Notes under the pieces: model-generated
The model's input: only the letters and a program-made list of their open reading frames with translations
Told to the model about the DNA's origin: nothing
Database searches by the model: none
Shown: positions 3,436 to 27,018 of the stretch, in pieces
Layout of the letters: every line of letters begins with the position of its first letter
Position numbering within the stretch: the stretch's first letter is position 1
From: Nitrospiria bacterium
GTDB lineage: Bacteria > Nitrospirota > Nitrospiria > DATECO01
DNA: 32,997 nucleotides
NCBI GenBank assembly: GCA_035286865.1
Contig: DATECO010000170.1
Coordinates: forward strand, 1 to 32,997
Direction: 5' to 3'
Program-made: the position numbers and the translations under genes

Positions 3436-4548
3436 TCAGTTCCGAACATAGAGATGGCCGCTCAAATGTTTAACAGTTCCCTTGAGCTCAAGTTGCAGTA
3501 AAACTCCGCTGACCTGGGCAGAAGGAAGACGGCTCTGGGTAATAAGTTCGTCGATGTGTCTGGGCTCATCGGAGAGCATTTCATAAAGGGCCGCCTCGAT
3601 CGGCTCCAGATCGACCTGTTGCCTCTCGCGGACCACTCGTCCGCCACCCTCCATCTGGGGGTTAAGTTCCTCCAAGATGTCCTGGATATCCTCCACCAAT
3701 TTGGCCCCGGCCTTGATCAGCCGATTAGTGCCCAGGCTGTTAGTCGCACCAAGATTGCCGGGAATGGCGAATACCTCCCGGCCCTGTTCCAGCGCACACT
3801 GGGCTGTGATGAGGGACCCGCTCCGCTCGGCGGCCTCCACCACGAGGGTTCCTAGGGAAAGTCCGCTGATGATGCGGTTGCGGTGTGGGAAGTGGGCTGG
3901 CAACGGGGAAGTCCCCAGCGGGAATTCAGAAATCACCGCACCGCGCTGAGCAATCTTCTCACGCAGTTCTGCATTTTCAGGGGGATACAGATTATCCAGG
4001 CCACACCCCAAAACCGCGATGGTCCTGCCCTCAGCAGCCAGGGCCCCCAAATGGGCAGCACTGTCAACCCCTCTGGCCAGGCCACTCACGATCGTAAATC
4101 CGTGGGCGGAGAGTTCACTGGCTATCCGCTCGGCGGTCCGTATCCCATAAGGGCTGGCCTTACGGGAACCCACGATGGCCACCGCCTGGTTGTCGGAAGG
4201 CAGAAGCTCGCCTCTGATATAAAGAATCGGGGGCGGGTCATTAATGGCCGAAAGCGATTTCGGATAGCCCGGATCCTTCAAGGTGATCACCGTGATACCC
4301 TCTCGCCTGAGCTTCTTCACTTCGGCCTGGGCCTGGTGTTGGGCAGAGGGCTTCTTGAGTGCCCCGGCCAGGTGCTCTGAGAAGCTTGCCCGCTCCATGA
4401 TCTCATTCATCGAGGCGGAAAACACTGCCTGGGAGGAGTCAAACACCTCCATCAGTCTCTTAAGAGCGGCGTCCCCGAGCCGCGGGATCTTTTTTAACGC
4501 TAGCCATCCGATCAGTTCTTGGTCAGACATAAGGACCTTCGCGGGCAA
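3436..4548 (-). CDS. dprA: DNA-processing protein DprA (Smf)
   Basis: 370 aa. Rossmann-like DprA core motifs VAIVGSRKASPYG and GLARGVDSAAH, FAIPG, and a C-terminal winged-helix-like tail. Sits directly upstream of topA. Confidence 0.93.
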   Translation of the reverse strand: MPAKVLMSDQELIGWLALKKIPRLGDAALKRLMEVFDSSQAVFSASMNEIMERASFSEHLAGALKKPSAQHQAQAEVKKLRREGITVITLKDPGYPKSLSAINDPPPILYIRGELLPSDNQAVAIVGSRKASPYGIRTAERIASELSAHGFTIVSGLARGVDSAAHLGALAAEGRTIAVLGCGLDNLYPPENAELREKIAQRGAVISEFPLGTSPLPAHFPHRNRIISGLSLGTLVVEAAERSGSLITAQCALEQGREVFAIPGNLGATNSLGTNRLIKAGAKLVEDIQDILEELNPQMEGGGRVVRERQQVDLEPIEAALYEMLSDEPRHIDELITQSRLPSAQVSGVLLQLELKGTVKHLSGHLYVRN

Positions 4549-14829: not shown

Positions 14830-16215
14830 TTATCGGCTAGAGACGGCAGAGCCGGAGAGGAGTTCGTCCACCCTTTTGTTGGTCGAGGAGAAAGGGTCCA
14901 TGCAGAGGATGGTCTCCTCCCAGTATCCATTTAATTTCAGATAGGTCCAGTCCACGGTATAGGAACGGTTTCTTTCCTTCGCGAATTTGATGAAGTCCCC
15001 CCTCACCTTAGCTCGGGTAGTCTGGGGAGGGGTGGTCATTGCCCTTTGGATATCATCCTCCGAGACGATCCTTTCAATCATCTCCTGCTCAGTCAAGAGG
15101 TAGTAAAGCCCGCGGGTCCGCTTAACATCGTGGTACTGAAGATCCATCATGGCGATCCTGGAATCATCCCACCCACAGCCTTTTTTTTCCATGTAGGATA
15201 ACATCAATTCTTTCTTCGTGACCCAGTCTATCTGTGCCGAGTTTTGCATGGGATCTTCTTCCATCTTGTCAAGCGCATCCTTCCACTTTTCCATAATGTC
15301 CTGCACCTCCTCATCCTCATCGAGACTCGTCTTGGTGATATATTCATCCAGGCGCTCTAAATAGATACGTTGCACCTCTATTCCGGTTAACTCCCGGCCA
15401 TCCTCCATCTTCACTCGGCGCTTCAGCGTGGTATCTCTTGAAATTTCCCGGATAGCCCGGACAGGATCCTCCAGTTCCACCCCCGACACGAAGGATCCAT
15501 CCTCGATCATGGAGAGGATGAGGTTGGTGACCCCCACTTTGAGATAAGTCGCGTATTCAGACATGTTGGAGTCCCCCACAATGATATGCAGGCGCCGATA
15601 TTTTTCGGCATCTGCATGGGGTTCATCCCGAGTGTTGATAATGCTCCGGGAGGAGGTGGTCGATGAGGAGGTCTTCTCATGGATATGCTGGGCCCGCTGA
15701 GACAAGAAATAGTGGGCCTTGCCGGACACTTTGAGCACCTTCCCGGCGCCAGCATAGACCTGCCGGGTCACGAAATAGGGGATGAGTTGCTCCGTCAACT
15801 TCCAAAAATCGAGGTCCCTGCGCATCAGATAATTCTCGTGACACCCGTAGGTATTGCCCATGGAGTCGGTGTTGTTCTTAAAGATATAAATGTTTCCCTC
15901 CAGCCCTTCTTCTCGCAGCCGTTTTTCAGCGACAGGCAGGCAGGCCTCTAAAAGGCGCTCTCCGGCCTTGTCATGGACCACAAGATCGAAGAGGTTGTCA
16001 CATTCTGGTGTGGCATATTCGGGATGACAGCCGGTATCCTGGTAAAACCTTGCGCCATTGATGAGGAATGCATTGGAGGGCCAACTATTGGGAATGAGGC
16101 CTTCAAAGATATAGCCCAGGATCTTTTCCATGGGCAGGTAGACCCGTCCATTGGGGGAGAAGATTAACCCATACTCATTTTCCAGGCCATAGATACGAGG
16201 TTTCATCGCCTTCAT
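14830..16215 (-). CDS. pafA: Pup--protein ligase PafA
   Basis: Glutamine-synthetase-like Pup ligase/deamidase family. N-terminus MKPRIYGLENEYGL...FLINGARFYQDTGCHPEYATPEC resembles mycobacterial PafA and lacks the Dop loop. Located downstream of prcA, as in actinobacteria. The track start is 16230; ATG 16215 sits one nt after the prcA stop. Confidence 0.85.
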   Translation of the reverse strand: MKAMKPRIYGLENEYGLIFSPNGRVYLPMEKILGYIFEGLIPNSWPSNAFLINGARFYQDTGCHPEYATPECDNLFDLVVHDKAGERLLEACLPVAEKRLREEGLEGNIYIFKNNTDSMGNTYGCHENYLMRRDLDFWKLTEQLIPYFVTRQVYAGAGKVLKVSGKAHYFLSQRAQHIHEKTSSSTTSSRSIINTRDEPHADAEKYRRLHIIVGDSNMSEYATYLKVGVTNLILSMIEDGSFVSGVELEDPVRAIREISRDTTLKRRVKMEDGRELTGIEVQRIYLERLDEYITKTSLDEDEEVQDIMEKWKDALDKMEEDPMQNSAQIDWVTKKELMLSYMEKKGCGWDDSRIAMMDLQYHDVKRTRGLYYLLTEQEMIERIVSEDDIQRAMTTPPQTTRAKVRGDFIKFAKERNRSYTVDWTYLKLNGYWEETILCMDPFSSTNKRVDELLSGSAVSSR

Positions 16216-16216
16216 C

Positions 16217-16909
16217 TTAAGACTCACCACTCTTCTTTATCAGTTCACTAATTTCTTCAGGTATAAACCGCTTAAACTTCCTCCCCTGTCTGGTTCGATC
16301 CAGGGCCGCCACCTCTAGGCCATTGGCATTGATGGCCTGATTGGTTACTCCCCCCAGGGCCTCTATAGAAAGCTTCAGCACCTCTGTCACTCCAGAGGCA
16401 CCCTTGTAGTGCTCCTTGAGAAAGATTATCAGGGCCTCCGATCTCCCGCCGATGACGGTAAATCCCTTCTCGTCATAGATGCTTCCATCAAATGTGATCC
16501 GGTAAATCTCATTGGGGTGGTCCTGTTCCCCCAATCCCACCACCAGGATTTCCACCTCCAGGGGTTTGACATCCTGGCTGAAGCTGGTTCCCAAGGATTG
16601 GGAGTAGGCATTCGCCAAGGACCTGGCCGTAACATCCTCACGGCTGTAAAGATATCCCTTGAGATCAGCATGCCGAATGCCTGCCTTCCGGAGGTTTTCG
16701 AATTCGCTGTATCTGCCCGCCCCTGCAAAGGCAATGTTGTCGTAGATCTCCGAGATCTTATTGAGCGCGCTGGGATTGTCAGCCACCAGTAGGATTCCGC
16801 TGCTGTACTCCATGGCAATGCTGGACCGACCCTTGGCAATGCCTTTCTTAGCATACTCGGCCTTGTCCTGCATGATCTGTTCTGGTGAAACGTAATAGGG
16901 CAGAACCAT
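16217..16909 (-). CDS. prcA: 20S proteasome alpha subunit
   Basis: 230 aa. N-terminus MVLPYYVSPEQIMQDKAEYAKKGIAKGRS, typical of bacterial PrcA. TAATG overlap with prcB. Confidence 0.92.
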   Translation of the reverse strand: MVLPYYVSPEQIMQDKAEYAKKGIAKGRSSIAMEYSSGILLVADNPSALNKISEIYDNIAFAGAGRYSEFENLRKAGIRHADLKGYLYSREDVTARSLANAYSQSLGTSFSQDVKPLEVEILVVGLGEQDHPNEIYRITFDGSIYDEKGFTVIGGRSEALIIFLKEHYKGASGVTEVLKLSIEALGGVTNQAINANGLEVAALDRTRQGRKFKRFIPEEISELIKKSGES

Positions 16910-17739
16910 TAGGCCACACGCCTCCTCTCTATAATGATGTTATAAACTTGCTTGATCCTCTGCTCATCCACATCCTGGATGCCCTGGCGGGTCACCATCT
17001 TGATCGTGGGATAGATCCCGCGGATGAGGTCAGGACCGGCTGTGGCCACGTCTTCTTCAGAGGCATCGTAAAGCGCCTCTAAGGCCAAGGCAACCGCCTC
17101 ATCCTCTGTCATATCACGTTTATAAGACTTTTTCATGGTGTTGCGGGCGTCCTTCCCGCCGGAACCGGTTGCATAGTATTCTGTCTCTTCGTACCGGCCT
17201 CCTGTAATATCATACTTAAAAATCCGCCCTTCTTGGCGTTTTAGGTCATAGCTGACAAAGATAGGAATTACAATGAGACCCTGCACGGCCATCGCAAGAT
17301 TGGCCTTCACCATCTGACCCAATTTATTTGCCTTTCCATCTGTGGAAAGTTTTGCGCCCTCTAGCTTCTCGTAGTGCTCAAGTTCAGTCTGAAAAAGTCT
17401 GGCGAGTTCGATACAGGGGCCCGCCGCTCCGGCAATAGCAATGGCTGAGTACTCATCCGCCTTATAAACCTTTTCGATTCTCCGGGCCGACACCTGAAAG
17501 CCCTCCGTAGCCATACGGTCTCCTGCGATGATGGCTCCGTCCCCGTGACGAAGGGCCAGCACCGTGGTTCCCCTGGGGATTAACGGGGGTCGCTCAAAGG
17601 ATTCGCTTAGTGTCGGTTCTGCCTTCAAGAACTGGAGTGGGGGAATACCCGATTTCTGGACCTGCAGCAGATGGGGATAATGGGAGGAGAGATACTCAGA
17701 GAAACTAGAGGTTTGATCCTCGAGAGGAAATGCACACAC
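16909..17739 (-). CDS. prcB: 20S proteasome beta subunit with propeptide
   Basis: 276 aa. A propeptide of about 56 aa, then LIPRG|TTVLALRHGDG, the Ntn-hydrolase catalytic Thr. GTG start immediately after the pup TAG. Confidence 0.92.
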   Translation of the reverse strand: MCAFPLEDQTSSFSEYLSSHYPHLLQVQKSGIPPLQFLKAEPTLSESFERPPLIPRGTTVLALRHGDGAIIAGDRMATEGFQVSARRIEKVYKADEYSAIAIAGAAGPCIELARLFQTELEHYEKLEGAKLSTDGKANKLGQMVKANLAMAVQGLIVIPIFVSYDLKRQEGRIFKYDITGGRYEETEYYATGSGGKDARNTMKKSYKRDMTEDEAVALALEALYDASEEDVATAGPDLIRGIYPTIKMVTRQGIQDVDEQRIKQVYNIIIERRRVA

Positions 17740-17940
17740 CTACTGTCCTCCTTTTTGAACGTAGTTCTTCACAAACTCCTCGGCGTTTTCCTCCAGAACA
17801 TCATCGATCTCGTCCAATAGCTTGTCGATATTTTCCTTAATCTTTTTGCCTTTTTCGATCACCTCGGGATTAGCGCTCACATGATCATCACGCTTGCCCG
17901 GTTCACGCCTCTTGTCCTTCTTTTGGTCCTGTCGAGCCAT
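17740..17940 (-). CDS. pup: Prokaryotic ubiquitin-like protein Pup (C-terminal GGQ)
   Basis: 66 aa. Disordered basic/acidic N-half, helical Mpa-binding segment DKLLDEIDDVLEENAEEFVKNYVQKGGQ, ending in Gly-Gly-Gln. Confidence 0.9.
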   Translation of the reverse strand: MARQDQKKDKRREPGKRDDHVSANPEVIEKGKKIKENIDKLLDEIDDVLEENAEEFVKNYVQKGGQ

Positions 17941-17964
17941 ACCCTTTTCTCACCCCCTTTATAT

Positions 17965-18073
17965 GTGGGGACCCATGCTAGGATTCGTTAACCGTTCTAC
18001 GTTAAACGTTAATCGTTCTGAAACTCCCACGATTAACGAATCACGATTCACGAATAACGTCCCATGTCCCCAC
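17965..18073. repeat. Dyad-symmetric element with two inverted arrays of 7-nt-phased CGTT / AACG repeats (dop-pup spacer)
   Basis: CGTT begins at 17986, 17993, 18000, 18007 and 18014. ACG begins at 18029, 18036, 18043, 18050 and 18057. A 10-bp perfect apical stem pairs 18007-18016 with 18029-18038 around a 12-nt loop. An 8-bp basal stem pairs GTGGGGAC 17965-17972 with GTCCCCAC 18066-18073. Confidence 0.8.
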
Positions 18074-18131
18074 GCCCCGCGCTCTCCGCCTTAGGCAGAG
18101 TGGCCATCCGTTTTAGGCGGACAAGCCCTTG

Positions 18132-19613
18132 CTAAGACACAATCTGCTCCAAAAGCTCATCCACCGTGGAGGATTGCTCTAAGATGCTCCCCACCAGTTC
18201 CTGGTTCCCCTTGAGGGGCTCCATGAGGGGAACCCGCTTGATAGTGGTATTGCCAATATCAAAGAGGACTGAGGTCCAGCTTGCAGCATAGACCTCCTTG
18301 GGAAACTTTTTAAGACACATTGCTCTGAAGTAGGCCCGTGTGTCAGAGGGGGGGACCTCCCGTGCGCGAACAACATCATCCTGGGTCACAATGGTCTCCA
18401 CATAGTTGCCTCGTTCCAGGGCGTAGTAGAGTCCACGATCCAGCCGGAGGTCGTGGTACTGTAAATCCATTAACGAAATCCTGGGGTCGTCCCAACCACA
18501 CCCCTTCCTCTTCATATAGGAAAGCAGGAGTTCCTTCTTGATGATCCAGTCCAATTCACGAGAGAGCTGCATGGGTTCCTCTTCGAGCCTATCCAGGACA
18601 TGACCCCATTTACCCAGCACATCCCGCGTTATCTCATCGGCGCCACGTGAAGCGCAGTACTGCGCGGCGGCATTGAGATACTCCCTTTGAATCTGGATGG
18701 CGGTGAATTCCCGTCCGTCCCGGAGCTTAACTCTACTTCTTAAGCTGGTATCCCGGGAGATTTCTCGGATAGCCCGGATGGGATCCTCCAGCTCTAGGTG
18801 GGGAATCCCGTGGCCCTCCTCCAGAAGGGACAGAAGCAGCATCATGGTCCCCACCTTAAGATAGGTTGAATATTCCGACATATTGGCGTCGCCCACGATA
18901 ATATGCAGCCTGCGATACTTCTGCGGATCGGCGTGAGGTTCATCACGGGTGTTCATGATCGGGCGTTTCACCATGGTGTTGAGGTCTGTGATCACCTCAA
19001 AGAAATCGGCCCTCTGTGAAATCTGGTAGGAGGTGGCTTCGGTCCGATTCTCCGCACCCACCTTCCCCGAGCCGGTGTAGATTTGGCGGGTCACCAGGAA
19101 CGGGACAAGAACCTCCACAAGGCGCTCGAAGGGCAGTGACCTTGAGACCAAATAATTTTCATGATAGCCATAACTATTGCCCTTACCATCCGTATTATTT
19201 TTATAGACGAGAAACCGGTCAGGTCCGCCCCGCAGCCGGCTGGCCACCTCCCGGCACAGATCCATGATTCGTTCCCCGGCCTTTTCATAAGCCACGAGGT
19301 CGCGGGGATTGGTACACTCCGGTGTGGAATACTCCGGATGGGCCCCATCCACATAAAGGCGGCCCCCGTTGTGAAGGAGCTTATTGAGCAGCTTATTGTA
19401 TTCTGGCCCGGGTCTCTCCTTTTCCCCCTCCACCTCAAAGCCCCTGGCATCCAGTAATGGATTTTCATTCTCATAGTCCCAGATGGCATGGTTCGAGGGC
19501 AGGTGAGGATAGCTGTTAATCAGCAGGATGGAGTTGGACACGGGGTCCTGCGCCGTAAGGTCTTTGGTAGTGATCCCGAATTCGGTCTCTGTCCCTAGGA
19601 CTCTCTTGATCAT
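18132..19613 (-). CDS. dop: Pup deamidase/depupylase Dop
   Basis: 493 aa, same fold family as PafA. It carries the Dop-specific loop [17 protein letters not shown] (compare mycobacterial Dop WDYEVESPLRDARGF). Lies between arc and pup, with an ATGA overlap onto the arc stop. Confidence 0.87.
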
Positions 19614-21379
19614 AAATAGTGCCCTGGGCTGATGTTCTCGATCTGGCGAGAATCGGCGGACTTGCCACCCATCGTGCGTGCGTGGACGATCTTCTCACCT
19701 TTGCGACCCGCGATCCTGGCCCAGTCATCGGGATTAGTGGTGTTGGGTAAGTCTTCATGTTCCCTGAACTCATCTCGGATGGCGCGGATTAAATCTTCAG
19801 CTTTGATTCCCTTTTCGCCCATCGAGATCGCGCGCTTGATGGCATATTTTTTGGCCCGGGCCACGATCCCCTCGATGAGCGCACCGCTGGAGAAGTCCTT
19901 AAAGTAGAACATCTCCTTTTCACCATTGGCATAGGTGACCTCCAGGAACTTGTTCTCATCCGCGGTGCTGTACATCTCCTCCACAGTAAGACCGATCAGG
20001 CGCTGCACCATCTGGAGGCGATTGCCTTGTCCCTGGGCAAGCTCATCCGCGTGATAGGGGAGGTCTTCCGTCAGGTACTTGGAGAAAATCGCATGGGCTG
20101 ACTTCTTATCGGGGCGTTCGATCCTGATCTTTACATCGAGTCGCCCTGGACGGAGGATGGCAGGATCAATGAGATCCTGGCGGTTACTGGCCCCAATCAC
20201 AATGACGTTTCGCAGCCGTTCAACCCCATCGATCTCGGAGAGAAACTGAGGGACGATGGTCGATTCGACATCCGATGAAATCCCGGTCCCGCGGGTCCTG
20301 AATAGGGCATCCATTTCGTCAAAAAATACAATAACGGGCAAACCCTCCTCAGCCTTCTCCTTGGCCTTTTTGAAGACTTCCCGGATCTGCCGCTCGCTCT
20401 CGCCTACATATTTATTCAAGAGCTCGGGTCCCTTGACATGTAGAAAAAAGCTGCGGATATCCTTGCCGGTCCGGCCTGCCAGTTTTTTTGCAATAGAGTT
20501 GGCCACCGCCTTGGCAATCAGCGTCTTGCCACATCCCGGAGGCCCGTAGAGCAGGATCCCTTTGGGAGGAAGCAGACGATGTTCTGCGAAAAGATCCGGA
20601 TGGAGAAAAGGAAGCTCCACCGCGTCCTTGATCTGCTCGATCTGCTCATCGAGGCCACCGATATCCTCATAGGTCACATCAGGCACCTCCTCCAGGACTA
20701 CCTCTTCTACCTCTGACTTCGGGAGTTTCTCCAAAAGGTATCCCGATCGGGGATCAAAGAGCAAGTGGTCTCCCACACTCAGTTTCTCTTTGAGCAAGGG
20801 ATCCGCCAGTTCGGCCACTCGTTCTTCGTCCGCCCTGAGCGTCACAATGGCCCGGTGATCTCCCAGGAGGTCCTTGAGACGAACCACCTCACCCTGCATG
20901 TCAAAGTCGCAGGTCTCCACAGCATTGAGGGCCTCGTTGAGGATGAGCTGCTGGCCTTTTTTTAAGGTATCAATCCGAATCTCAGGATGGAGGTTGACCT
21001 TCATTTTCCGGCCCGCGATGAACACATTCACCGTGCCATCCTTATTCCCGCTCGAAAAAATGGCATACGTTGAGGGAGGTGCAGTGAGCTTTTCAATTTC
21101 CAGTTTGAGGGCCTCGATCTGGGCCTTGGCCTCCTGCAGAGCCGAAATCAGCTTCTCGTTCTGCCGGTAGGCCTGTTCCAATTGTGTCCTGGATTGCCGA
21201 AGATCGCGGGCCTCTTCCTCCAGGGACTTGATCTGCACCCTCAACTTTTCGATCTCCCACTCATACTCACGAGTCTTTTCTTCAGGGGAGGGATTCCCCC
21301 CGGACAGCTGGTCAGAAAGTTTTTTCATCGTGCTCCTGAAAGGATTGAGCCTGCCCTGATTTTTTTTAGATTCCCCCAT
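19610..21379 (-). CDS. arc: Proteasome-associated AAA+ ATPase ARC/Mpa
   Basis: N-terminal coiled coil, OB domains, Walker A GPPGCGKT, Walker B IVFFDEMD, and C-terminal ...GHYL (proteasome-docking YL tail). The track start is TTG 21403. ATG 21379 has AAGGAG 5 nt upstream. Confidence 0.93.
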
Positions 21380-21444
21380 CGTGTCTCCTTTCCGCCGGCC
21401 CAAAATAAAGGTTTCAGAATCTCATGCGAGATCCTTATAATTTT

Positions 21445-21473
21445 ATTTTATCATCTCAATCTATAACGGTCAA
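21445..21473 (-). promoter_or_regulatory. Sigma70-like promoter TTGACC-N17-TAAAAT upstream of arc
   Basis: On the minus strand, -35 is at 21473-21468 and -10 at 21450-21445, inside an AT-rich stretch. It is followed by the inverted repeat ATCTC-N4-GAGAT (about 21421-21434). Confidence 0.4.
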
Positions 21474-21660
21474 CTGTTTATATATTTTTATAGCTTCTTA
21501 TATCATCGAGGCCGAGTCACGAGATGCTGCTCTCTCTTTTTTAGAGATGAATACCCATCGCGAGCGCGAGTGAGTGTGGACAGGCCCCGCTGACGCGCCA
21601 GATCACAATGATAGGAAAACTTCGATTCTCGGAACAAATCAGGAGGAGCTCTCTAGCGCG

Positions 21661-22320
21661 TTAATGTCTGTCGTGACAGCGCTCCAGTTCAGTGATCAGG
21701 GCTGCGGCAGCCTCCTTCGGGTCCTCAGCCATGAGTATAGCGGAGATTAAAGCTACCCCATCTGCCCCCGCGCTTCGCACGTCCTGGACACTTTTCCTCC
21801 GGATCCCGCCCAGGGCAAAGAGGGGTATCTTTATATGGGCCCGCACGGTTCTTAGCACATCGAGACCGAGGGGTGCTCCATACTGGGTCTTGGTCGGGGT
21901 CTCATAAATCGGGCCCAGGGTAATGAAATCGGCCCCTTCTCCTTCGGCCCGTTTGGCCTCCTCGAGGGAATGTGTTGAGACACCGATGAGTTTAGCATCG
22001 CCGAGGACTTTACGAGCTATCCGAGTGGGTACACTATTGGATGGGAGATGGACCCCGTCGGCATCCACTGCCAGGCAGATATCCATGCGGTCATTGATGA
22101 GAAGCCGGGCTGGAACCTTGGCCGTCAACCCTCTCATGGCCTGAGCCAGAGAAAGGAGTTCCCGTGTGGGGAGATCCTTTTCCCTGAGCTGGACGACTCT
22201 AACTCCCCCGGCAAGCGCCGCATCGACCACCTGGGGCAGAGGTCTCCCTTGTGTTTGAAATCGATCTGTAATGAGGTAAACGGGCGGGTGAAGGAGAGCG
22301 GTTCTCAAAACCTTATTCAA
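21661..22320 (-). CDS. thiE: Thiamine-phosphate synthase
   Basis: 219 aa. VYLITDR, VQLREKD, and a TIM-barrel ThiE pattern. No ATG is available: an in-frame stop lies immediately upstream, so the start must be TTG (22320 or 22308). 8-nt overlap with thiG. Confidence 0.9.
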
Positions 22321-23092
22321 TCATGCCTTCTATCGGGCTGCTGGCCGTAGCATATAACTTCTTGGGGATCCTTCCTGCCAGATAGGCCTGTCGTCCCGCG
22401 ATGACGGCATACTTCATGGCCTCAGCCATCCGGATCGGATCCTTAGCCCCGGCGATCCCAGTATTCATAAGGACCCCATGACATCCGAGTTCCATTGCAA
22501 TGGTGGCATCGGACGCGGTGCCCACCCCTGCATCCACGATCACAGGCACCCTTACCGTTTCCAGGATAATACGTATATTATAAGGATTGCGAATTCCTAA
22601 CCCGGACCCAATGGGGGCGGCTAGAGGCATCACCGCTGCGCAACCGATCTCCTCGAGACGCTTAGCCACCACGGGATCATCATTCGTATAGGGCAGCACG
22701 ATGAAGCCCTCCTTTACCAAAATCTTGGCAGCCTCCAGCAGTCCGGCCGTATCGGGGAAAAGGGTCTTCTCGTCCCCGATCACCTCAAGTTTGACCATAT
22801 CCGAGATTCCTGCAGCCCTGGCCAGGTGCGCTGTCCTGATGGCATCCTGCACGGTGTAACATCCCGCTGTGTTTGGAAGGATCTTGTAGACCTTGGGATT
22901 GATGTAATCGAGAAGATTTTCTTTGGTGCGGTCCAGAACATTAACCCGCCGGACCGCCACGGTGATCACATCTGCCCCTGAGGCTTCAGTGGCCTTCTGG
23001 GTTTCTATAAAGTCCTTATACTTCCCGGAACCGACAATGAGACGGGATTTGAACTCAATCCCCCCTACTACCAGCCGGTCATGGACGTCCAT
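22313..23092 (-). CDS. thiG: Thiazole synthase
   Basis: [12 protein letters not shown] and VKLEVIGD (Schiff-base Lys region). ATG 23092 lies one nt after the thiS TAA, with GGAGG inside the thiS tail. The track's longer form (23116) overlaps thiS. Confidence 0.95.
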
Positions 23093-23093
23093 T

Positions 23094-23300
23094 TTATAAT
23101 ATTCCTCCCCCCACAAAGCCTATCACTTCGACCTGATCCCCCTCTTTAAAGAAGGTGCTCTTTAAGTCGTGTCGATCTATAATCTGGAGATTGACCTCCA
23201 CCGCCACGCGATCCGGATTGATCCCGACCTCCTCCAGTAGCGATGATATCGTCGTGGACTCTGTCACTTCACGAGCCGCCCCGTTCAGGACGATTTTCAA
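23094..23300 (-). CDS. thiS: Sulfur-carrier protein ThiS (beta-grasp) with a two-residue extension after the GG terminus
   Basis: 68 aa. [12 protein letters not shown]...[15 protein letters not shown] is typical ThiS throughout, but the frame reads GTG GGG GGA GGA ATA TTA TAA, so Ile-Leu follow Gly-Gly. TTG start with AGGAG 6 nt upstream. Confidence 0.85.
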
Positions 23301-23323
23301 AATGATCTCCTGGAATTAGCCTC

Positions 23324-23353
23324 ATTATAGGGGATTCAGAGAATCCTTGTCAA
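23324..23353 (-). promoter_or_regulatory. Near-consensus sigma70 promoter TTGACA-N18-TATAAT for thiSGE, with a palindrome in the spacer
   Basis: On the minus strand, -35 is at 23353-23348 and -10 at 23329-23324. The spacer contains the perfect inverted repeat GGATTC-N3-GAATCC (23332-23346). The predicted leader to the thiS TTG is only about 17 nt. Confidence 0.5.
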
Positions 23354-23651
23354 TAAGACCTCCAGACCCATCCCTAGAAGCTCAATATATAATAATGGAG
23401 AGTTTCTCCGGTTTAATCCAGCCTAAATTTGCCTCCTGTTTCCTTACTTTCAAGGTGAATCTTCTGAAGGTTTTCTGAGGAAGAGGGATCAGGAAGAGTC
23501 ATCTAAGGCTTTAGCGCAACTCTTTGAAAGGTTTGATCTCTTATAAGCCAGCGAGTTTAGGGCCAATTTAGATATCGATCGATCTGGTGGCCTTCTCGCA
23601 TGCAAAAATTTTGGATTGCAAAATATTCGGAAAGATGATAAATATATAGAT

Positions 23652-24107
23652 ATGTTAATGCAGATGAAGGTCCGGGGTCTGATGTTTGACCCTTACAGTA
23701 ACGCCTATATCGTCATCCTCCGAGATGAGGACAATACCGAGGTCCTTCCCATTTGGGTCGGAAAGGCGGAGGCCAATGCCATCAGCTTTGCCCTGGAGGG
23801 AATCTCCACCCCCAGGCCCATGGCGCATGATCTTATTAGAAATACGCTGGATGCCCTCAATGCCAAATTGATTAGTGTAGTGGTCACGGATCTTCGTGAC
23901 AATACCTATTTCGCCAAGCTCCACTTGCAATACAAAGACTCAGAGTATACGGTGGATTCCCGACCCAGTGATGCCATTGCCCTGGCCCTGCGTGCGGATT
24001 CCCCAATTTTCGCCAGCGAGGAAGTGATCCAAAAGCACAGCTCTGAGGAATTGGATCGCTGGCTGGACAACTTAAGGCCCGAGGATTTTGGAAAATACGA
24101 TGCCTGA
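23652..24107 (+). CDS. DUF151 / bifunctional-nuclease (BFN) domain protein, copy 1
   Basis: The core VLPIWVGKAEANAISFALEGISTPRPMAHDL...DNTYFAKL...VDSRPSDAIALALRADSPIFASEEV matches the BFN/DUF151 family (Thermotoga TM0160-like). Start is ambiguous: TTG 23616 in the track, or ATGs at 23652, 23658 or 23664. Confidence 0.85.
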   Translation: MLMQMKVRGLMFDPYSNAYIVILRDEDNTEVLPIWVGKAEANAISFALEGISTPRPMAHDLIRNTLDALNAKLISVVVTDLRDNTYFAKLHLQYKDSEYTVDSRPSDAIALALRADSPIFASEEVIQKHSSEELDRWLDNLRPEDFGKYDA

Positions 24108-24816
24108 TACCCGCTTCTCATCAACGGCGATGGTGACGATGCCGAAAAGGCTTGCCACAACAGGCCTCATGAACGGACATATTGTACGCAAGGCAATGCA
24201 AGCGTATCTCAATGAGAATGTCTTCATGGGGATGGTCCTGTCGTGCGTAGAGGTGTACAAGAAGGAGTGCTTCGGTCTGCTCTTGGGTTATCGGACCCCG
24301 GAAAAGTACATCGTGGAACACGCCATTCCCTATCAGACCGTGCGGCGTGGACATAACTGGGCAGAGCTCAGTCACGATAAGTGGAAGGTCATTCAGGAAA
24401 TCCTGAAGAATTTTCCAAAACTCGATGTCCTGGGGGATTTTCACTCGCACACGATGTATCGAGATATCAAGGCACAGGTCTCCCTCAGCCGTGACGACAT
24501 CGAATACATGGACCCGCAAGATCTTCAGATCGTCATTGCGGTGAACGAAAAAAAGCGGACCCGGGATTGGTCCTTGAATTCGGATCGCACCATTTCCGGG
24601 TCCATCGATCGGTTCTATTTTAAGATTGCCGCCTACTATTTTGATCACCCATCGGTCAAGGATTTTCACCCGCTGTCCTCCATTGCCACCTTAGGCGGGG
24701 GAGCTTCTGGCGGGCAAGCTGGGGCAGGAGCACGCCAGAATGGGAACGGAGGGCGACCAGGCCGGCCTAGGATGGCCGATATTCTCTGCCCATTTGTAAT
24801 GGGATATAAATCATAA
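24100..24816 (+). CDS. JAMM/MPN+ (JAB) metalloprotease-like protein with a Gly-rich C-terminal tail
   Basis: ECFGLLLG (catalytic Glu context), then GDFHSHTMYRDIKAQVSLSRDDI, which fits H-x-H-x12-S-x-x-D. All JAMM ligand and catalytic positions are present, with a longer-than-canonical spacer. ATG 24100 lies inside the last codons of BFN copy 1 (ATGCCTGA overlap). The tail is LGGGASGGQAGAGARQNGNGGRPGRPR. Confidence 0.65.
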   Translation: MPDTRFSSTAMVTMPKRLATTGLMNGHIVRKAMQAYLNENVFMGMVLSCVEVYKKECFGLLLGYRTPEKYIVEHAIPYQTVRRGHNWAELSHDKWKVIQEILKNFPKLDVLGDFHSHTMYRDIKAQVSLSRDDIEYMDPQDLQIVIAVNEKKRTRDWSLNSDRTISGSIDRFYFKIAAYYFDHPSVKDFHPLSSIATLGGGASGGQAGAGARQNGNGGRPGRPRMADILCPFVMGYKS

Positions 24817-24936
24817 TTGCGGCCGCACCTCAGCTTTACGGTAAGGGGTCGGGGCTGGCGGATTAGAGGACCGTGCAATTCGGGGAGAGGACACATCCAC
24901 GATCTGTCGTACGAGGCAATGGAGAGATAAATAAGA

Positions 24937-25392
24937 ATGGAAGTCAAGCTCAGCGTGCATGGAATCCTCTCTGACTCGGCAAGTGAGGCACAAATCATCA
25001 TCCTCCGAGACGAAAAGGCGGTGGAGATTCTTCCCATCTGGGTAGGGGTGGCCGAGGGGAATGCCATCCGGTTTGCCATTGAGGGCATTATGTCGGCCCG
25101 TCCACTGACCCATGACCTCCTCAGGAACCTCATCGAGCATCTGAGGGTAGAGGTTTTGAAGGTGGTCATCACCGAGATCCGAAATAATACCTACTATGCG
25201 ACAATCTTTATGAAGCATGATGGGGCCAGCTTGACGATTGATGCAAGGCCCAGCGATGCGATTGCCCTGGCCCTGAGGAGCAAGTGTCCGATTTATGCTG
25301 CCCCAGAAGTCCTCAAGAGAAAATCCCAGGAGAATTTAGATGCCTGGCTGGAGCGTCTTAAGCCAAAAGATTTTGGCAAGTACGATGCCTGA
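24937..25392 (+). CDS. DUF151 / bifunctional-nuclease (BFN) domain protein, copy 2
   Basis: ILPIWVGVAEGNAIRFAIEGIMSARPLTHDL...NNTYYATI...IDARPSDAIALALRSKCPIYAAPEV. About half of the residues match copy 1 in a gapless manual alignment, and the C-terminus DFGKYDA is the same. Confidence 0.85.
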   Translation: MEVKLSVHGILSDSASEAQIIILRDEKAVEILPIWVGVAEGNAIRFAIEGIMSARPLTHDLLRNLIEHLRVEVLKVVITEIRNNTYYATIFMKHDGASLTIDARPSDAIALALRSKCPIYAAPEVLKRKSQENLDAWLERLKPKDFGKYDA

Positions 25393-25451
25393 GCCCTGCG
25401 GCCAGGTGTAGGATTTCAATTCTCGAGAAAAAGAACGGAAGATCCGGAATC

Positions 25452-26066
25452 ATGCGAATGCGGCCTCGGGGCAAAATGGACTGCCGGCTTTTTTTATTTT
25501 TTTTATTTCTGGGTACAGTGCCAATCTCATCAGGGTGGGCGGAAGGGGAGTCCATCTTAGAGCGAGGGAGTCACAGTGTCTCAAGACCCGTACAGGAGGT
25601 GGTCCAGGGGGCCCTCCAGGCCCTCAAGGCTGTGGTGGACTTGTGGAGAGATCAAAAGTTTGATGACCTTTATGAGTTGGGAACGGTACAGTCCCGAGGT
25701 CAATTCTCAAAAGAGCAGTTCATCGAGCTGATGAAAAACAGCAACAAAAAGCTTCAGTGCTGCTGGGCCACCATGCAGGACCCAGAGGGATTTCTTGAGT
25801 CACCCACCCAGGTCGCTGTACAGGCTAAGCTGGGTTATGAGAACTTTCAGAACACAAAGTACGCCACCCCGGATCGGGATGCTGAATCGGCCCAATGGGT
25901 AATTTCGTCCAGTTTTGATTCCCAGACCTTTCTGATGGTTCTGCAACAGGAGAGGTGGCGGATCGACCTGACCGAGATCCTTCTGGCCAGCGGCTACCAT
26001 CAAGAAGGCGTGGGATTGACTGGAATGGATGGCCAGGCATCGGGCTTTGCCAGTGATAAGCCCTGA
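25452..26066 (+). CDS. Exported hypothetical protein (signal peptide; possibly an NTF2-like fold)
   Basis: The N-terminus ...MDCRLFLFFLFLGTVPISSGWAEGE looks like a signal peptide. The real start may be the third ATG at 25476. No catalytic motif recognised. Confidence 0.5.
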   Translation: MRMRPRGKMDCRLFLFFLFLGTVPISSGWAEGESILERGSHSVSRPVQEVVQGALQALKAVVDLWRDQKFDDLYELGTVQSRGQFSKEQFIELMKNSNKKLQCCWATMQDPEGFLESPTQVAVQAKLGYENFQNTKYATPDRDAESAQWVISSSFDSQTFLMVLQQERWRIDLTEILLASGYHQEGVGLTGMDGQASGFASDKP

Positions 26067-26074
26067 TTTTTATC

Positions 26075-26102
26075 TTGACTTGTAAAGAATTTTGAATACA
26101 AT
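26075..26102 (+). promoter_or_regulatory. Possible promoter TTGACT-N16-TACAAT for rplM-rpsI
   Basis: -35 at 26075-26080 and -10 at 26097-26102. It overlaps the track's TTG start (26092), which argues for the ATG 26119 start of rplM. The implied leader is very short. Confidence 0.35.
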
Positions 26103-26118
26103 AAATTTATCCTTCAAA

Positions 26119-26565
26119 ATGAAAACACCTTCGATTAAGGAAACGTCCGTTAGCCGAAAATGGTATGTGGTGGATGCCGAAGGCCAGATCCTGGGGAGGC
26201 TGGCCTCCCGTGTGGCGTCCCTATTGCGGGGAAAGCACAAACCGATCTTCACCCCTCACGTGGACACCGGAGACCATGTCGTCGTCATCAATGCCCAGAA
26301 TATACGCCTGAGCGGAGATAAACTGAGGAGCAAGATTTACTACCATCACAGCGGCTACCCGGGAGGGCTAAAGTACACGACCGCAGGGATGCTGAAGAGT
26401 TCCAAGCCGGAACGCCTGGTCCATTTCGCAATCCAGGGGATGCTTCCCAAGAACAAGCTGGGTCGGGCGATGATCAAAAAGCTCCGGATCTACGCAGGGG
26501 CCGATCATCCTCATCATGCCCAGCGACCAGAACCCTTGATGGCCAGTCAAAGGAAAGGCAAGTAA
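26119..26565 (+). CDS. rplM: 50S ribosomal protein L13
   Basis: [52 protein letters not shown] is a canonical L13 N-terminus. Confidence 0.95.
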
Positions 26566-26568
26566 GGG

Positions 26569-26961
26569 ATGAGCAGCGTGCAGTACCACAACACCGGGAA
26601 ACGCAAGAATGCGGTGGCCCGTGTCTGGCTAACGCCTGGGCAGGGAAGCATCAGCGTGAATCAGCGGTCCCTGGAGGATTACTTTCCTCGGGAGATCTGG
26701 AGGATGCAGGTTAAACAACCCCTCGAGCTGTGCGGTCTCATGGGACAGTATAATGTTATGGCCAATGTCTATGGGGGAGGCCTGACGGGACAGGCAGGGG
26801 CGATCCGGCACGGGATCGCCAGGGCCCTTCTCGAAGTGGATCCGAAATTAAGGGGCCGGTTGAGAAAAGAAGGGTTTCTCACGCGGGATTCGCGGATCAA
26901 GGAGCGCAAGAAATATGGGCAGAAAGGTGCTCGGAAGAGGTTTCAGTATTCTAAGCGGTAG
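26569..26961 (+). CDS. rpsI: 30S ribosomal protein S9
   Basis: 130 aa. [12 protein letters not shown]...[19 protein letters not shown]...[18 protein letters not shown]. Confidence 0.96.
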
Positions 26962-26985
26962 TTGTGGGGTCAAGACTCCTTTGTA

Positions 26986-27018
26986 AAGGAAGGCGCCTTG
27001 GCCTTCCTTTTTTTATTT
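26986..27018 (+). terminator. Rho-independent terminator after rpsI
   Basis: AAGGAAGGC (26986-26994), loop GCCTTG, GCCTTCCTT (27001-27009), followed by TTTTTATTT. Confidence 0.75.

Follow-up and report, generated by a model that had tools for sequence, protein, structure and literature searches.

A JAMM/MPN+ peptidase gene inserted in a DUF151 tandem: an undescribed gene pairing conserved in one branch of Nitrospirota

Results

Three genes lie together on the forward strand of the window, the 32,997-nucleotide stretch of Nitrospiria DNA analyzed here: BFN1 (23652..24107), which encodes a DUF151/BFN-domain protein of 151 amino acids (aa); a JAMM/MPN+ metallopeptidase gene (24100..24816, with its ATG at 24100; 238 aa); and BFN2 (24937..25392), which encodes a second DUF151/BFN-domain paralog, also of 151 aa. 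A first-pass annotation, made from the sequence without database searches, had described two DUF151 paralogs around a JAMM open reading frame. The frames and coordinates hold as claimed, and both flanking proteins match the PF02577 profile (BFN_dom; DUF151, COG1259), BFN1 scoring 138.6 bits and BFN2 129.7 bits against a gathering cut-off of 27. The start codon of the JAMM gene does sit inside the final BFN1 codons: the two genes share 8 nt, ATGCCTGA (24100..24107, forward strand), made up of the JAMM start codon together with the last BFN1 codons and stop (TGA, 24105-24107). This overlap is conserved in a sub-clade and, judged from sequence, is consistent with translational coupling.

Downstream on the same strand follow a gene for a predicted exported protein of 204 aa (25452..26066), which lies outside the module and is without family assignment (no Pfam or NCBIfam match above noise), and then rplM-rpsI (26092..26961; Pfam Ribosomal_L13 and Ribosomal_S9), after which come argC, argJ, rpsB, tsf, pyrH, and frr. 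On the reverse strand, thiS (23094..23300), a candidate substrate gene, is divergent from BFN1 at a distance of 352 bp; upstream of thiS lies a sigma-70 promoter of perfect consensus, TTGACA-18-TATAAT (23324..23353, reverse strand). Positions 21000-27000 gave no Rfam match and, in particular, no TPP riboswitch 5' of thiS. A complete Pup-proteasome block, mpa-dop-pup-prcBA-pafA (14830-21403), is found 2.2 kb away.

DUF151 proteins are spread across bacteria, archaea, and plant plastids and have a unique fold without an agreed function; in actinobacteria, their genes occur in the context of garA and MerR-type genes. BFN1 and BFN2 are identical at 78 of 151 positions (52%) with 0 gaps (E = 2e-63), in line with the earlier manual estimate of about one-half identity in a gapless alignment. 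BFN1 is the slowly evolving copy, with 70-87% identity across class-level relatives, and BFN2 is the faster-evolving copy. The C-terminal tail of BFN1 reads WLDNLRPEDFGKYDA. The DFGKYDA tail that the first-pass annotation had singled out does end both proteins, but it reflects a motif of the wider BFN family and is not a mark of this pair: inspection by eye finds WLExLxPEDFGKY(K/D)(M/A) in most of 62 distant BFNs, and a strict regular expression matches 33 of them.

By sequence, BFN1 matches TM0160 among PDB entries (E = 6.5e-29). Its AlphaFold2 (AF2) model (pLDDT 86) matches 1vjl/1sj5 in Foldseek at E ~1e-14 with TM scores of 0.78-0.85, and the same search returned no fold other than that of TM0160 at E < 0.01 and no known nuclease fold. 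A miaB gene lies directly upstream of BFN in 45 of 64 distant BFN loci. In Nitrospira, yggX is a neighbor of BFN.

Cor of Mycobacterium tuberculosis, the sole bacterial DUF151 protein to have been assayed, is a dimer without DNase or RNase activity, and the nuclease activity of plant DUF151 protein has been ascribed to a co-purifying nuclease (PMC3870250). DNase and RNase activity of plant DUF151 proteins (BBDs) has been reported (PMC7249048). Other members have been seen to bind proteins: a Halobacterium DUF151 protein binds CheA (PMC3579733), and plant DUF151-UVR proteins were trapped on CLPC1 (PMC8889267). The "nuclease" label is doubtful for bacterial DUF151 proteins. By analogy with Cor and TM0160, the BFN proteins are probably dimers.

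The middle gene is of the JAMM/MPN+ type, as first proposed from its motif and now also from its predicted fold. The JAMM catalytic elements (24265..24498, forward strand) are complete, comprising E56 in ECFGLLLG (24265-24267), H115 (24442-24444) and H117 (24448-24450) of H115-S-H117, and S130 (24487-24489) and D133 (24496-24498) of S130-R-D-D133. E56, H115, H117, and D133 never vary across an alignment of 83 homologs, at least 90% of which also have S130. The pattern, HxH-x12-S-x2-D, has a spacer 5 residues longer than the canonical x7; in the AF2 model, S130 and D133 are placed at the N-terminus of helix 131-136, after the HxH strand 109-119.

Profile scores of the JAMM protein are 24.5 bits for Prok-JAB PF14464 (cut-off 25) and 20.1 bits for JAB PF01398 (cut-off 22.5), and many close homologs have precomputed matches to one or the other. 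The AF2 model (pLDDT 79 overall, with the core mostly >90) has an MPN core at approximately residues 33-185, preceded by a variable, disordered N-terminal extension (residues 1-32). Foldseek with this model gave 153 PDB matches at E <= 1e-3, and the top ones are all MPN/JAMM proteins; BRCC36, Rpn11, CSN5, a bacterial Ubl-deubiquitinase, and the Caldiarchaeum Rpn11 homolog are among the matches (E ~1e-6 to 1e-5). The single JAMM sequence found nothing meaningful among PDB sequences, and a profile search found weak CSN5 and JAMM1 matches (E ~0.1-0.2). The homolog search recovered 265 homologs. The subfamily is distinct and small, at about 610 clusters at 50% identity, and its 150 best representatives (80-263 aa) show no domain fusions, each having a single matched stretch except for one fragment.

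The "Gly-rich tail" that had been counted toward the distinctiveness of the module is instead a disordered, lineage-specific linker of low complexity (residues ~186-220; 24655..24759, forward strand), which falls in gaps in most homologs and has pLDDT <50 for residues 196-216. After the linker comes a conserved C-terminal motif, RPxxAxIxCPFxxGY (residues 222-236; 24763..24807, forward strand). Within this motif, Nitrospirota and Acidobacteriota members nearly always share A226, I228, and P231, and residues 227-229 are predicted to add an extra strand to the MPN core (pLDDT ~95).

An in-frame ATG located 8 nt (11 nt in locus L005) before the end of the BFN1 stop codon occurs in 13 of 22 related loci. 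In those 13, the frame is open to the JAMM core across a variable spacer of 61-124 nt, and in several of them the overlapping ATG is the sole possible JAMM start. Because the position of this ATG is kept, the sequence favors a JAMM start at 24100 over the alternative in-frame ATG at 24193 (M32). The spacing between JAB and BFN2 is 12-27 nt in L001, L006, and L007; elsewhere, it rests on longest-ORF starts, which do not fix the true spacing.

We surveyed the gene neighborhoods of the JAMM subfamily at 74 loci from species-representative genomes, 24 of them from Nitrospirota and 50 from other phyla. A BFN gene lies directly beside the JAMM gene in 24 of 24 Nitrospirota species representatives that carry the subfamily: 17 loci are arranged as BFN1-JAB-(lipoprotein)-BFN2, with a BFN2-type ortholog downstream, a contig end truncates 2, and the other 5 have the order JAB-BFN1-like. 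The adjacency, which might have been peculiar to this genome, is therefore shared by all surveyed JAMM-bearing Nitrospirota species. JAMM orthologs of Acidobacteriota and other phyla are without a BFN neighbor, and no BFN gene lies within 6 kb of the JAMM homolog at any of the 50 loci from other phyla. Outside Nitrospirota, we found no universal partner of the subfamily; neighbors vary by clade and include genes for an amino-acid ABC ATPase and VWA proteins or for an MglA-like GTPase and an outer-membrane protein.

The adjacency holds in at least three genomic contexts and in two gene orders, and it persists where JAMM identity is as low as ~51-57%. The contexts include hemA-ccsA on one side with rplM-rpsI-argCJ on the other; CN_hydrolase and HhH-GPD on one side with SMC on the other (L001); bS22 upstream with deoxyhypusine-synthase-like, agmatinase, and arginine decarboxylase genes downstream; and, in this window and L085, thiS-thiG-thiE-mpa. 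All Nitrospirota adjacencies could have descended from a single ancestral JAB-BFN pair. Among the papers covered by a literature search, none links the two families, in keeping with the earlier statement that no DUF151-JAB system has been described. The DUF151-JAMM pairing is real and undescribed, and its arrangement is conserved in one branch of Nitrospirota.

The BFN1-BFN2 tandem is the older unit, and the JAMM gene is an optional insert into it. By synteny, the tandem heads the rplM-rpsI cluster in most relatives. The genus Nitrospira has it without a JAMM gene, as do 13 of 16 environmental BFN1 loci; this JAMM-less tandem is the commoner state, and the BFN pair can dispense with the JAMM gene. 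What the first-pass annotation saw as a cassette with duplicated flanks is thus this older tandem. The slot between BFN1 and BFN2 also holds an unrelated lipoprotein gene, with or without a JAMM gene, and position in the slot alone does not prove shared function because such an unrelated gene is accepted there too. BFN-JAMM operons mix functions, since in L083 the BFN gene overlaps a polyamine gene.

The exported protein immediately downstream, once offered as a further hint of a module, proved to be a lineage-specific neighbor found only in the closest relatives; a homolog was matched by search only in L005, and L085 has a 188-aa gene in the same position. Neither the 204-aa exported protein nor the lipoprotein was accepted as part of the module: both are lineage specific and without family assignment, and no mutual similarity was detected.

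Discussion

Our leading explanation, held tentatively and with a little less than even confidence, is that the JAMM protein is an active peptidase that is co-expressed and probably partnered with BFN dimers, as part of a translation-linked, Nitrospirota-specific operon. A gene for a small stand-alone JAMM/MPN+ zinc metallopeptidase would have become embedded in the older DUF151 tandem that heads the rplM-rpsI cluster. BFN1, JAMM, and BFN2 would be co-transcribed, with production of BFN1 and the peptidase coupled, and the peptidase would be catalytically active, its target being a peptide or isopeptide bond in some protein. BFN1 and BFN2, probably as a heterodimer, would bind the peptidase to target or regulate it and would have no nuclease role, a model drawn because the JAMM enzymes closest in structure (Rpn11, CSN5, and BRCC36) rely on a partner subunit. 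The module would most likely be linked to translation, given that BFN genes sit with rplM-rpsI, bS22, and miaB.

A somewhat unlikely alternative is that JAMM is an independent housekeeping peptidase whose gene was inserted a single time at a permissive intergenic site of a strongly expressed housekeeping cluster and was thereafter inherited vertically, so that adjacency to BFN would reflect shared transcription at most, with no common pathway or complex. Such a history would fit the prevalence of the JAMM-less tandem (Nitrospira and 13 of 16 environmental loci), the lipoprotein gene that occupies the slot with or without JAMM, the lineage-specific exported protein after BFN2, the non-BFN neighbors of JAMM orthologs elsewhere (amino-acid ABC ATPase, VWA, and MglA-like GTPase), and operons of mixed function, as illustrated by the BFN gene overlapping a polyamine gene in L083. 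It fits less well with an adjacency that outlasts at least three flanking contexts, in both orders and down to ~51-57% JAMM identity; this long-kept order counts against the alternative because gene order without selection rarely lasts so long. Moreover, JAMM is never away from BFN among the 24 JAMM-bearing Nitrospirota species, and the start-codon overlap is kept across spacers of variable length.

Partnership between the proteins could also take the form of an undescribed JAMM-BFN1/BFN2 complex in which DUF151 would be a non-nuclease adaptor; the protein substrate that it docks onto or delivers would have a link to translation or to sulfur insertion. We consider this proposal unlikely as a whole; it is drawn from the gene contexts with miaB, bS22, rplM-rpsI, YggX, and ThiS, and the family-wide C-terminal GKY(K/D)(M/A) tail would act in it as the docking motif.

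The nearby thiS gene raises the question of whether JAMM might instead act on ThiS, or on some other carrier of the ThiS/MoaD type, by trimming the residues that come after its C-terminal Gly-Gly, the position next to BFN being secondary. Adjacency of thiS is limited to one narrow lineage (this window, L005, and L085), thiS is divergent and not in an operon with the JAMM gene, and other JAMM-bearing lineages are without thiS within 6 kb. We consider this reading quite improbable. The glycines of ThiS must be C-terminal, and the protein encoded here, 352 bp from BFN1, ends in VGGG-IL, two residues past the glycines; TIGR01683, which it matches at 67.1 bits, ends at the last Gly, residue 66 of 68. 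The ThiS of the closest relative ends in GGG-TKSNHGYE. Variable extensions of 1-8 residues are present in 23 of 23 closest ThiS homologs, and most distant ones end at GGG, in a word-based search that did not take in Manganitrophus or other JAMM-bearing lineages. An extended thiS and a JAMM gene share one contig in this window, L005, and L085, and contigs of equal length point to the same arrangement for P0254/P0012 and P0261/P0002. Trimming would expose the glycine that has to be adenylated and turned into a thiocarboxylate, the role of QbsD toward QbsE; for JAMM enzymes that remove post-GG residues of sulfur carriers, QbsD/QbsE is the precedent, and CxnF/CxnE has been proposed (PMC5925218). 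Against this, L086 encodes an extended ThiS with no JAMM gene in the 5.3 kb of contig upstream of thiS, and no E1-like ThiF/MoeB gene lies within the window.

The first-pass annotation had suggested either maturation or deconjugation of a ubiquitin-like protein (Ubl) or the resolution of protein adducts on nucleic acid by DUF151 nucleases together with a JAB isopeptidase, and we regard this as highly improbable. The window, cassette included, has no Ubl, E1, or E2 gene, nor was one found within the cassette or close to it at any related locus; because none accompanies the module, we infer that it is not a ubiquitin-like conjugation system, even with an intact JAMM motif and deubiquitinases as the nearest structures. 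The adduct-processing idea could draw on the plant DUF151 DNase and RNase activity reported in PMC7249048 and on the HhH-GPD glycosylase and SMC neighbors in L001. It is unsupported because Cor, the only bacterial DUF151 protein assayed, showed neither DNase nor RNase activity (PMC3870250); in addition, the BFN fold matches TM0160 alone and no known nuclease fold, and DNA-repair neighbors are not conserved. The Pup-proteasome genes of the window form a separate conserved block with its own depupylase, Dop, and a link to them was rejected: the mpa-dop-pup-prcBA-pafA block travels with thiSGE, independently of the cassette, and is also present where no JAMM or BFN gene is nearby. A defense-system reading was likewise rejected, PADLOC having returned two sub-threshold generic JAB matches and no system match.

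Under our leading explanation, a conserved, translationally coupled partner would offer a rare experimental way into the DUF151 family, and the adaptor proposal, if true, would provide the first mechanistic handle on this widespread family. The dominant neighbors of DUF151 genes, namely miaB, genes for ribosomal proteins, and yggX in the case of Nitrospira, point away from "nuclease" and toward translation or Fe-S/sulfur chemistry. The value of the pairing is limited because the JAMM link extends over only part of a single phylum, the BFN pair can do without the peptidase, and the mechanism is one that we infer.

Comparison with known systems

Like the stand-alone Prok-JAB peptidases (Pyrococcus JAMM1 [5ld9], Mec+, and QbsD), the JAMM protein is a single-domain protein with an MPN core of ~150 residues, and it shares their Glu, HxH, and SxxD residues and, by prediction, their MPN fold. 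It differs from them in its 12-residue HxH-to-S spacer, its conserved RPxxAxIxCPF strand, and scores marginally under the Pfam gathering threshold, and its gene shares no operon with one for a ThiS/MoaD-type Ubl or E1. In QbsE-QbsD, CxnE-CxnF, and CysO-Mec+, as here, a JAMM gene is found near a ThiS-family carrier with post-GG residues; in our case, however, the carrier gene is divergent and adjacent in one lineage only, and the conserved partner of JAMM is BFN, not the carrier.

The idea of a partner-controlled peptidase is taken from Rpn11-Rpn8, CSN5-CSN6, and BRCC36-KIAA0157, which are the best Foldseek matches to the JAMM model (E ~1e-6) at an identity of 11-16%. In place of the MPN- paralog of these eukaryote-type deubiquitinases, the candidate partner here is a DUF151 dimer, and this JAMM is not known to act on a ubiquitin-like substrate.

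Within the DUF151 family (T. maritima TM0160, Cor/Rv1829, plant BBD1/2, and UVR2-4), BFN1 and BFN2 are full-length members with the shared signature motifs and the TM0160 fold. They are without a UVR domain, in contrast to the plant UVR2-4 members, and, unlike the other members listed, they form a conserved tandem of two diverged paralogs. Their genomic context is rplM-rpsI together with the JAMM gene, whereas in most other sampled bacteria it is miaB.

A conserved BFN-JAMM gene association

The association of DUF151 (BFN-domain) genes with a JAMM peptidase gene is real, conserved, and undescribed, and it has a narrower scope and less of a cassette character than the first-pass annotation had proposed. 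As claimed there, three ORFs follow one another on the forward strand of the window: BFN1 (23652 to 24107), a JAMM-type ORF (ATG at 24100, ending at 24816), and BFN2 (24937 to 25392). BFN1 and BFN2 are unambiguously members of the Pfam family BFN_dom/DUF151 (138.6 and 129.7 bits, respectively; cut-off, 27), and their proposed paralogy is borne out by 52% gap-free identity over the full 151 residues, with profile scores far over the cut-off. Their sole solved sequence relative is TM0160 of T. maritima.

We searched an alignment of the JAMM protein against 185,579 species, each represented by a single genome, and scanned the flanks of the 74 resulting loci for BFN genes. All 24 Nitrospirota loci (JAMM identity, 51 to 70%) have a BFN gene directly adjoining the JAMM gene, so the adjacency is not unique to this genome; the 50 loci outside this phylum (Acidobacteriota, WOR-3, “Deltaproteobacteria,” and others) all lack a BFN gene within 6 kb of JAMM. 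JAMM neighbors in those phyla differ by clade, being either an amino-acid ABC ATPase and VWA proteins or an MglA-like GTPase and an outer-membrane protein. The Nitrospirota arrangement takes several forms: BFN1-JAMM-BFN2, as in the window; BFN1-JAMM-lipoprotein-BFN2, in Manganitrophaceae-like and related lineages; and JAMM followed by a BFN1-like gene, with ribosomal protein bS22 encoded upstream and polyamine genes downstream. Wider flanks also vary by lineage: thiSGE-mpa in the window's own, while elsewhere the genes lie between hemA-ccsA and rplM-rpsI-argCJ, between CN_hydrolase plus HhH-GPD and SMC, or with bS22 and polyamine genes.

In the JAMM-BFN lineage, bS22 is a 32-aa, highly basic ORF (NF047430, 46.9 bits) about 20 nt upstream of JAMM (L083:652-750, L018:2564-2659, L021:5867-5962, and L023:5880-5975). 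The BFN stop there overlaps a deoxyhypusine-synthase-like gene, the first of a downstream set that continues with agmatinase and pyruvoyl arginine decarboxylase genes.

The window, from an uncultured Nitrospirota genome, is a housekeeping region in which we found no mobile or defense signatures (PADLOC matches were all at noise level). Its reverse strand carries, in order, topA, dprA, rng, rodA, mrdA, and mreDCB, then a complete Pup-proteasome cluster (pafA, prcA, prcB, pup, dop, and mpa) and thiE, thiG, and thiS, the cluster with the thi genes spanning 14830 to 23300. Diverging from thiS on the forward strand are BFN1, JAMM, BFN2, and the gene for a 204-aa protein predicted to be exported, followed on the same strand by rplM, rpsI, argC, argJ, rpsB, tsf, pyrH, and frr. 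The pup product (17740 to 17940, reverse strand) ends in GGQ and the mpa product in GHYL; the thiSGE-mpa-dop-pup-prcBA-pafA block recurs in two related loci, L085 and L086. Upstream of thiS is a sigma-70 promoter of perfect consensus (TTGACA-18-TATAAT; 23324 to 23353, reverse strand). The thiS leader yielded no TPP riboswitch (no Rfam match at E ≤ 0.1), and no forward-strand promoter match comparable to that of thiS was found upstream of BFN1.

The JAMM protein and its start codon

First-pass assignment of the middle ORF to JAMM stands on motif and fold, although its profile scores fall just below both Pfam cut-offs (Prok-JAB, 24.5 against 25; JAB, 20.1 against 22.5). Across 83 aligned homologues, E56, H115, H117, and D133 never vary, and S130 is kept in at least 90%. 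The AlphaFold2 model (mean pLDDT, 79; core mostly >90) best matches, in the PDB, BRCC36, Rpn11, CSN5, a bacterial Ubl-deubiquitinase, and a Caldiarchaeum Rpn11 homologue. S130 and D133 sit in the canonical position at the N-terminus of the helix after the HxH strand, and the loop preceding them is 5 residues longer than the textbook x7. Motif, predicted fold, and S/D placement together identify the predicted product as a JAMM protein. The peptidase forms a small, distinct, stand-alone subfamily of the JAMM/MPN+ superfamily, with about 610 clusters at 50% identity, and its 150 best representatives all fall between 80 and 263 aa in length. The “Gly-rich tail” once ascribed to it is not terminal: residues ~186 to 220, predicted to be disordered, align to gaps in most homologues, and beyond them lies a conserved, confidently modeled C-terminal strand (RPxxAxIxCPF) that is shared with Acidobacteriota members and is thus not BFN specific.

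The octamer ATGCCTGA (24100 to 24107, forward strand) contains both the JAMM start and the BFN1 stop, from which coupled translation had been proposed. Of the 22 loci with BFN1 upstream, 13 have an in-frame ATG placed 8 nt (in L005, the nearest relative, 11 nt) ahead of where the BFN1 stop codon ends, with the open frame continuing to the conserved core through a variable leader of about 20 to 43 residues that is predicted to be disordered; at least 6 of the 13 lack any methionine ahead of the core and hence must use the overlapping start. JAMM begins at the core, 30 to 100 nt after BFN1, in the other nine. These patterns indicate that coupling is real in the window's sub-clade but not universal. 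The leader, which occurs only in lineages whose start overlaps the BFN1 stop, is basic and rich in Ala, Pro, and Thr; it occupies 24100 to 24195 in the window and has equivalents in L001, L005 to L009, L012, L015, L017, L029, L030, and L085.

The BFN pair as backbone

By search, close orthologues are much more numerous for BFN1 than for the JAMM protein. In the genus Nitrospira, yggX-BFN1-BFN2-rplM-rpsI-argC-argJ-rpsB reproduces the window's synteny without a JAMM gene. Among 80 metagenome BFN loci, 16 are BFN1 orthologues; BFN1 directly adjoins BFN2 in 13 of these, one is BFN1-JAMM-lipoprotein-BFN2, one is BFN1-lipoprotein-BFN2 without JAMM, and one is cut by a contig end. The tandem BFN pair is thus the conserved backbone, with JAMM and lipoprotein genes as independently variable slot occupants, and the idea of a duplicated flank designed around the peptidase falls away. 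In a neighbor-joining tree rooted on TM0160, BFN1 forms a tight clade apart from the long-branched BFN2 sequences, and the single BFN of JAMM-BFN lineages falls beside BFN1. The exported protein, previously cited in favor of a module, has a homologue by search in L005 only, and a 188-aa gene occupies its position in L085.

The slot lipoprotein (~195 to 219 aa; lipobox, e.g., LLFFGC) lies between BFN1 (or JAMM) and BFN2 in several lineages, with and without JAMM (L019:6600-7259, L020:6655-7248, L096:677-1321, L087:5048-5689, and L011:5693-6274), and matches no Pfam or NCBIfam family.

The DFGKYDA tail is a family trait rather than one of the cassette: WLExLxPEDFGKY(K/D)(M/A) is visible at the extreme C-terminus of most of 62 distant single-copy BFNs (under a strict regular expression, 33 match) and in JAMM-less Nitrospira. 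It spans 24063 to 24104 and 25348 to 25389 in the window and commonly ends in GKYKM in metagenome BFN loci (L103 to L166). Outside the Pfam domain and modeled with low confidence, it looks like a putative docking motif.

In the PDB, the BFN1 model matches TM0160 only and no known nuclease fold. Mycobacterium tuberculosis Cor is a dimer that gives CO resistance and showed neither DNase nor RNase activity, and its authors blamed the plant DUF151 nuclease result on a nuclease that had co-purified (PMC3870250). A DUF151 protein from Halobacterium binds CheA (PMC3579733), and plant DUF151-UVR proteins are trapped on the ClpC1 unfoldase (PMC8889267). Immediately upstream of BFN in 45 of 64 distant single-copy metagenome loci is the gene for the tRNA methylthiotransferase MiaB, mostly spaced by −67 to +15 nt (e.g., L153:2630-3976, then BFN at 4001-4495; one example scored 493.6 bits with TIGR01574); no paper in the literature searched links DUF151 and MiaB. 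In 17 JAMM-less Nitrospira-type loci, BFN1 is immediately preceded on its own strand by a YggX-like gene (Iron_traffic, oxidative-damage protection; L079:4555-4866, L081:4458-4736, and 15 others). Taken with rplM-rpsI and bS22, this gene context would suggest a role in translation or Fe-S/sulfur chemistry rather than in nucleic-acid cleavage. Also seen were parA-parB, often after BFN in miaB-type loci, and a TusA gene nearby on the opposite strand in several YggX-BFN1 loci.

Model and alternatives

We tentatively favor a model in which BFN1, JAMM, and BFN2 would be co-transcribed as one operon and the JAMM protein, made in step with BFN1, would be an active Zn peptidase. The BFN proteins, probably as a BFN1/BFN2 heterodimer, may serve as its binding partners or targeting subunits, a partner dependence analogous to that of Rpn11, CSN5, and BRCC36, and the target would be a protein substrate in a translation-linked setting. 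That DUF151 acts as a peptidase adaptor in a translation-linked or sulfur-insertion-linked process is a doubtful proposition; if true, it would offer a first mechanistic way into this widespread family.

Alternatively, JAMM may be an independent peptidase whose gene was passed down in a permissive slot, as the dispensable JAMM gene, the promiscuous slot, and the missing BFN linkage in other phyla would suggest; we judge this rather unlikely, as the BFN-JAMM adjacency lasts through changes of context and gene order and through deep divergence.

Trimming of a ThiS-type sulfur carrier by JAMM seems improbable. The ThiS gene lies 352 bp away (23094 to 23300, reverse strand), and its product ends in VGGG-IL; that of L005 (4917-5141, reverse strand) ends in GGG-TKSNHGYE. 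Extended termini are also encoded at L085:8001-8213 and L086:5294-5506, and each of the 23 closest ThiS homologues has a variable extension of 1 to 8 residues, whereas most of the distant ones end in GGG. Judged from these termini, ThiS is encoded as a precursor whose maturation must require some C-terminal peptidase, for which the neighboring JAMM protein is a candidate; JAMM enzymes are known or proposed to trim such extensions (QbsD/QbsE and CxnF/CxnE; PMC5925218). However, the thiS adjacency is limited to one lineage with divergent genes, JAMM genes in other lineages have no ThiS gene nearby, and in L086, which has an extended ThiS, the contig carries no JAMM gene over the 5.3 kb that lie upstream of thiS.

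The earlier suggestion of Ubl conjugation or nucleic-acid adduct processing is very improbable, as every accessory component is missing (no Ubl, E1, or E2 gene across the window) and Cor makes the nuclease label doubtful.

As the first-pass annotation held, a link between DUF151 and JAB domains is described in no paper in the literature searched. Compared with described operon types, the JAMM-BFN locus is not a Ubl-E1-JAB, CBASS, Bil, Pup, or sulfur-carrier operon; what is new here is a putative prokaryotic JAMM peptidase operon with a conserved candidate partner family.
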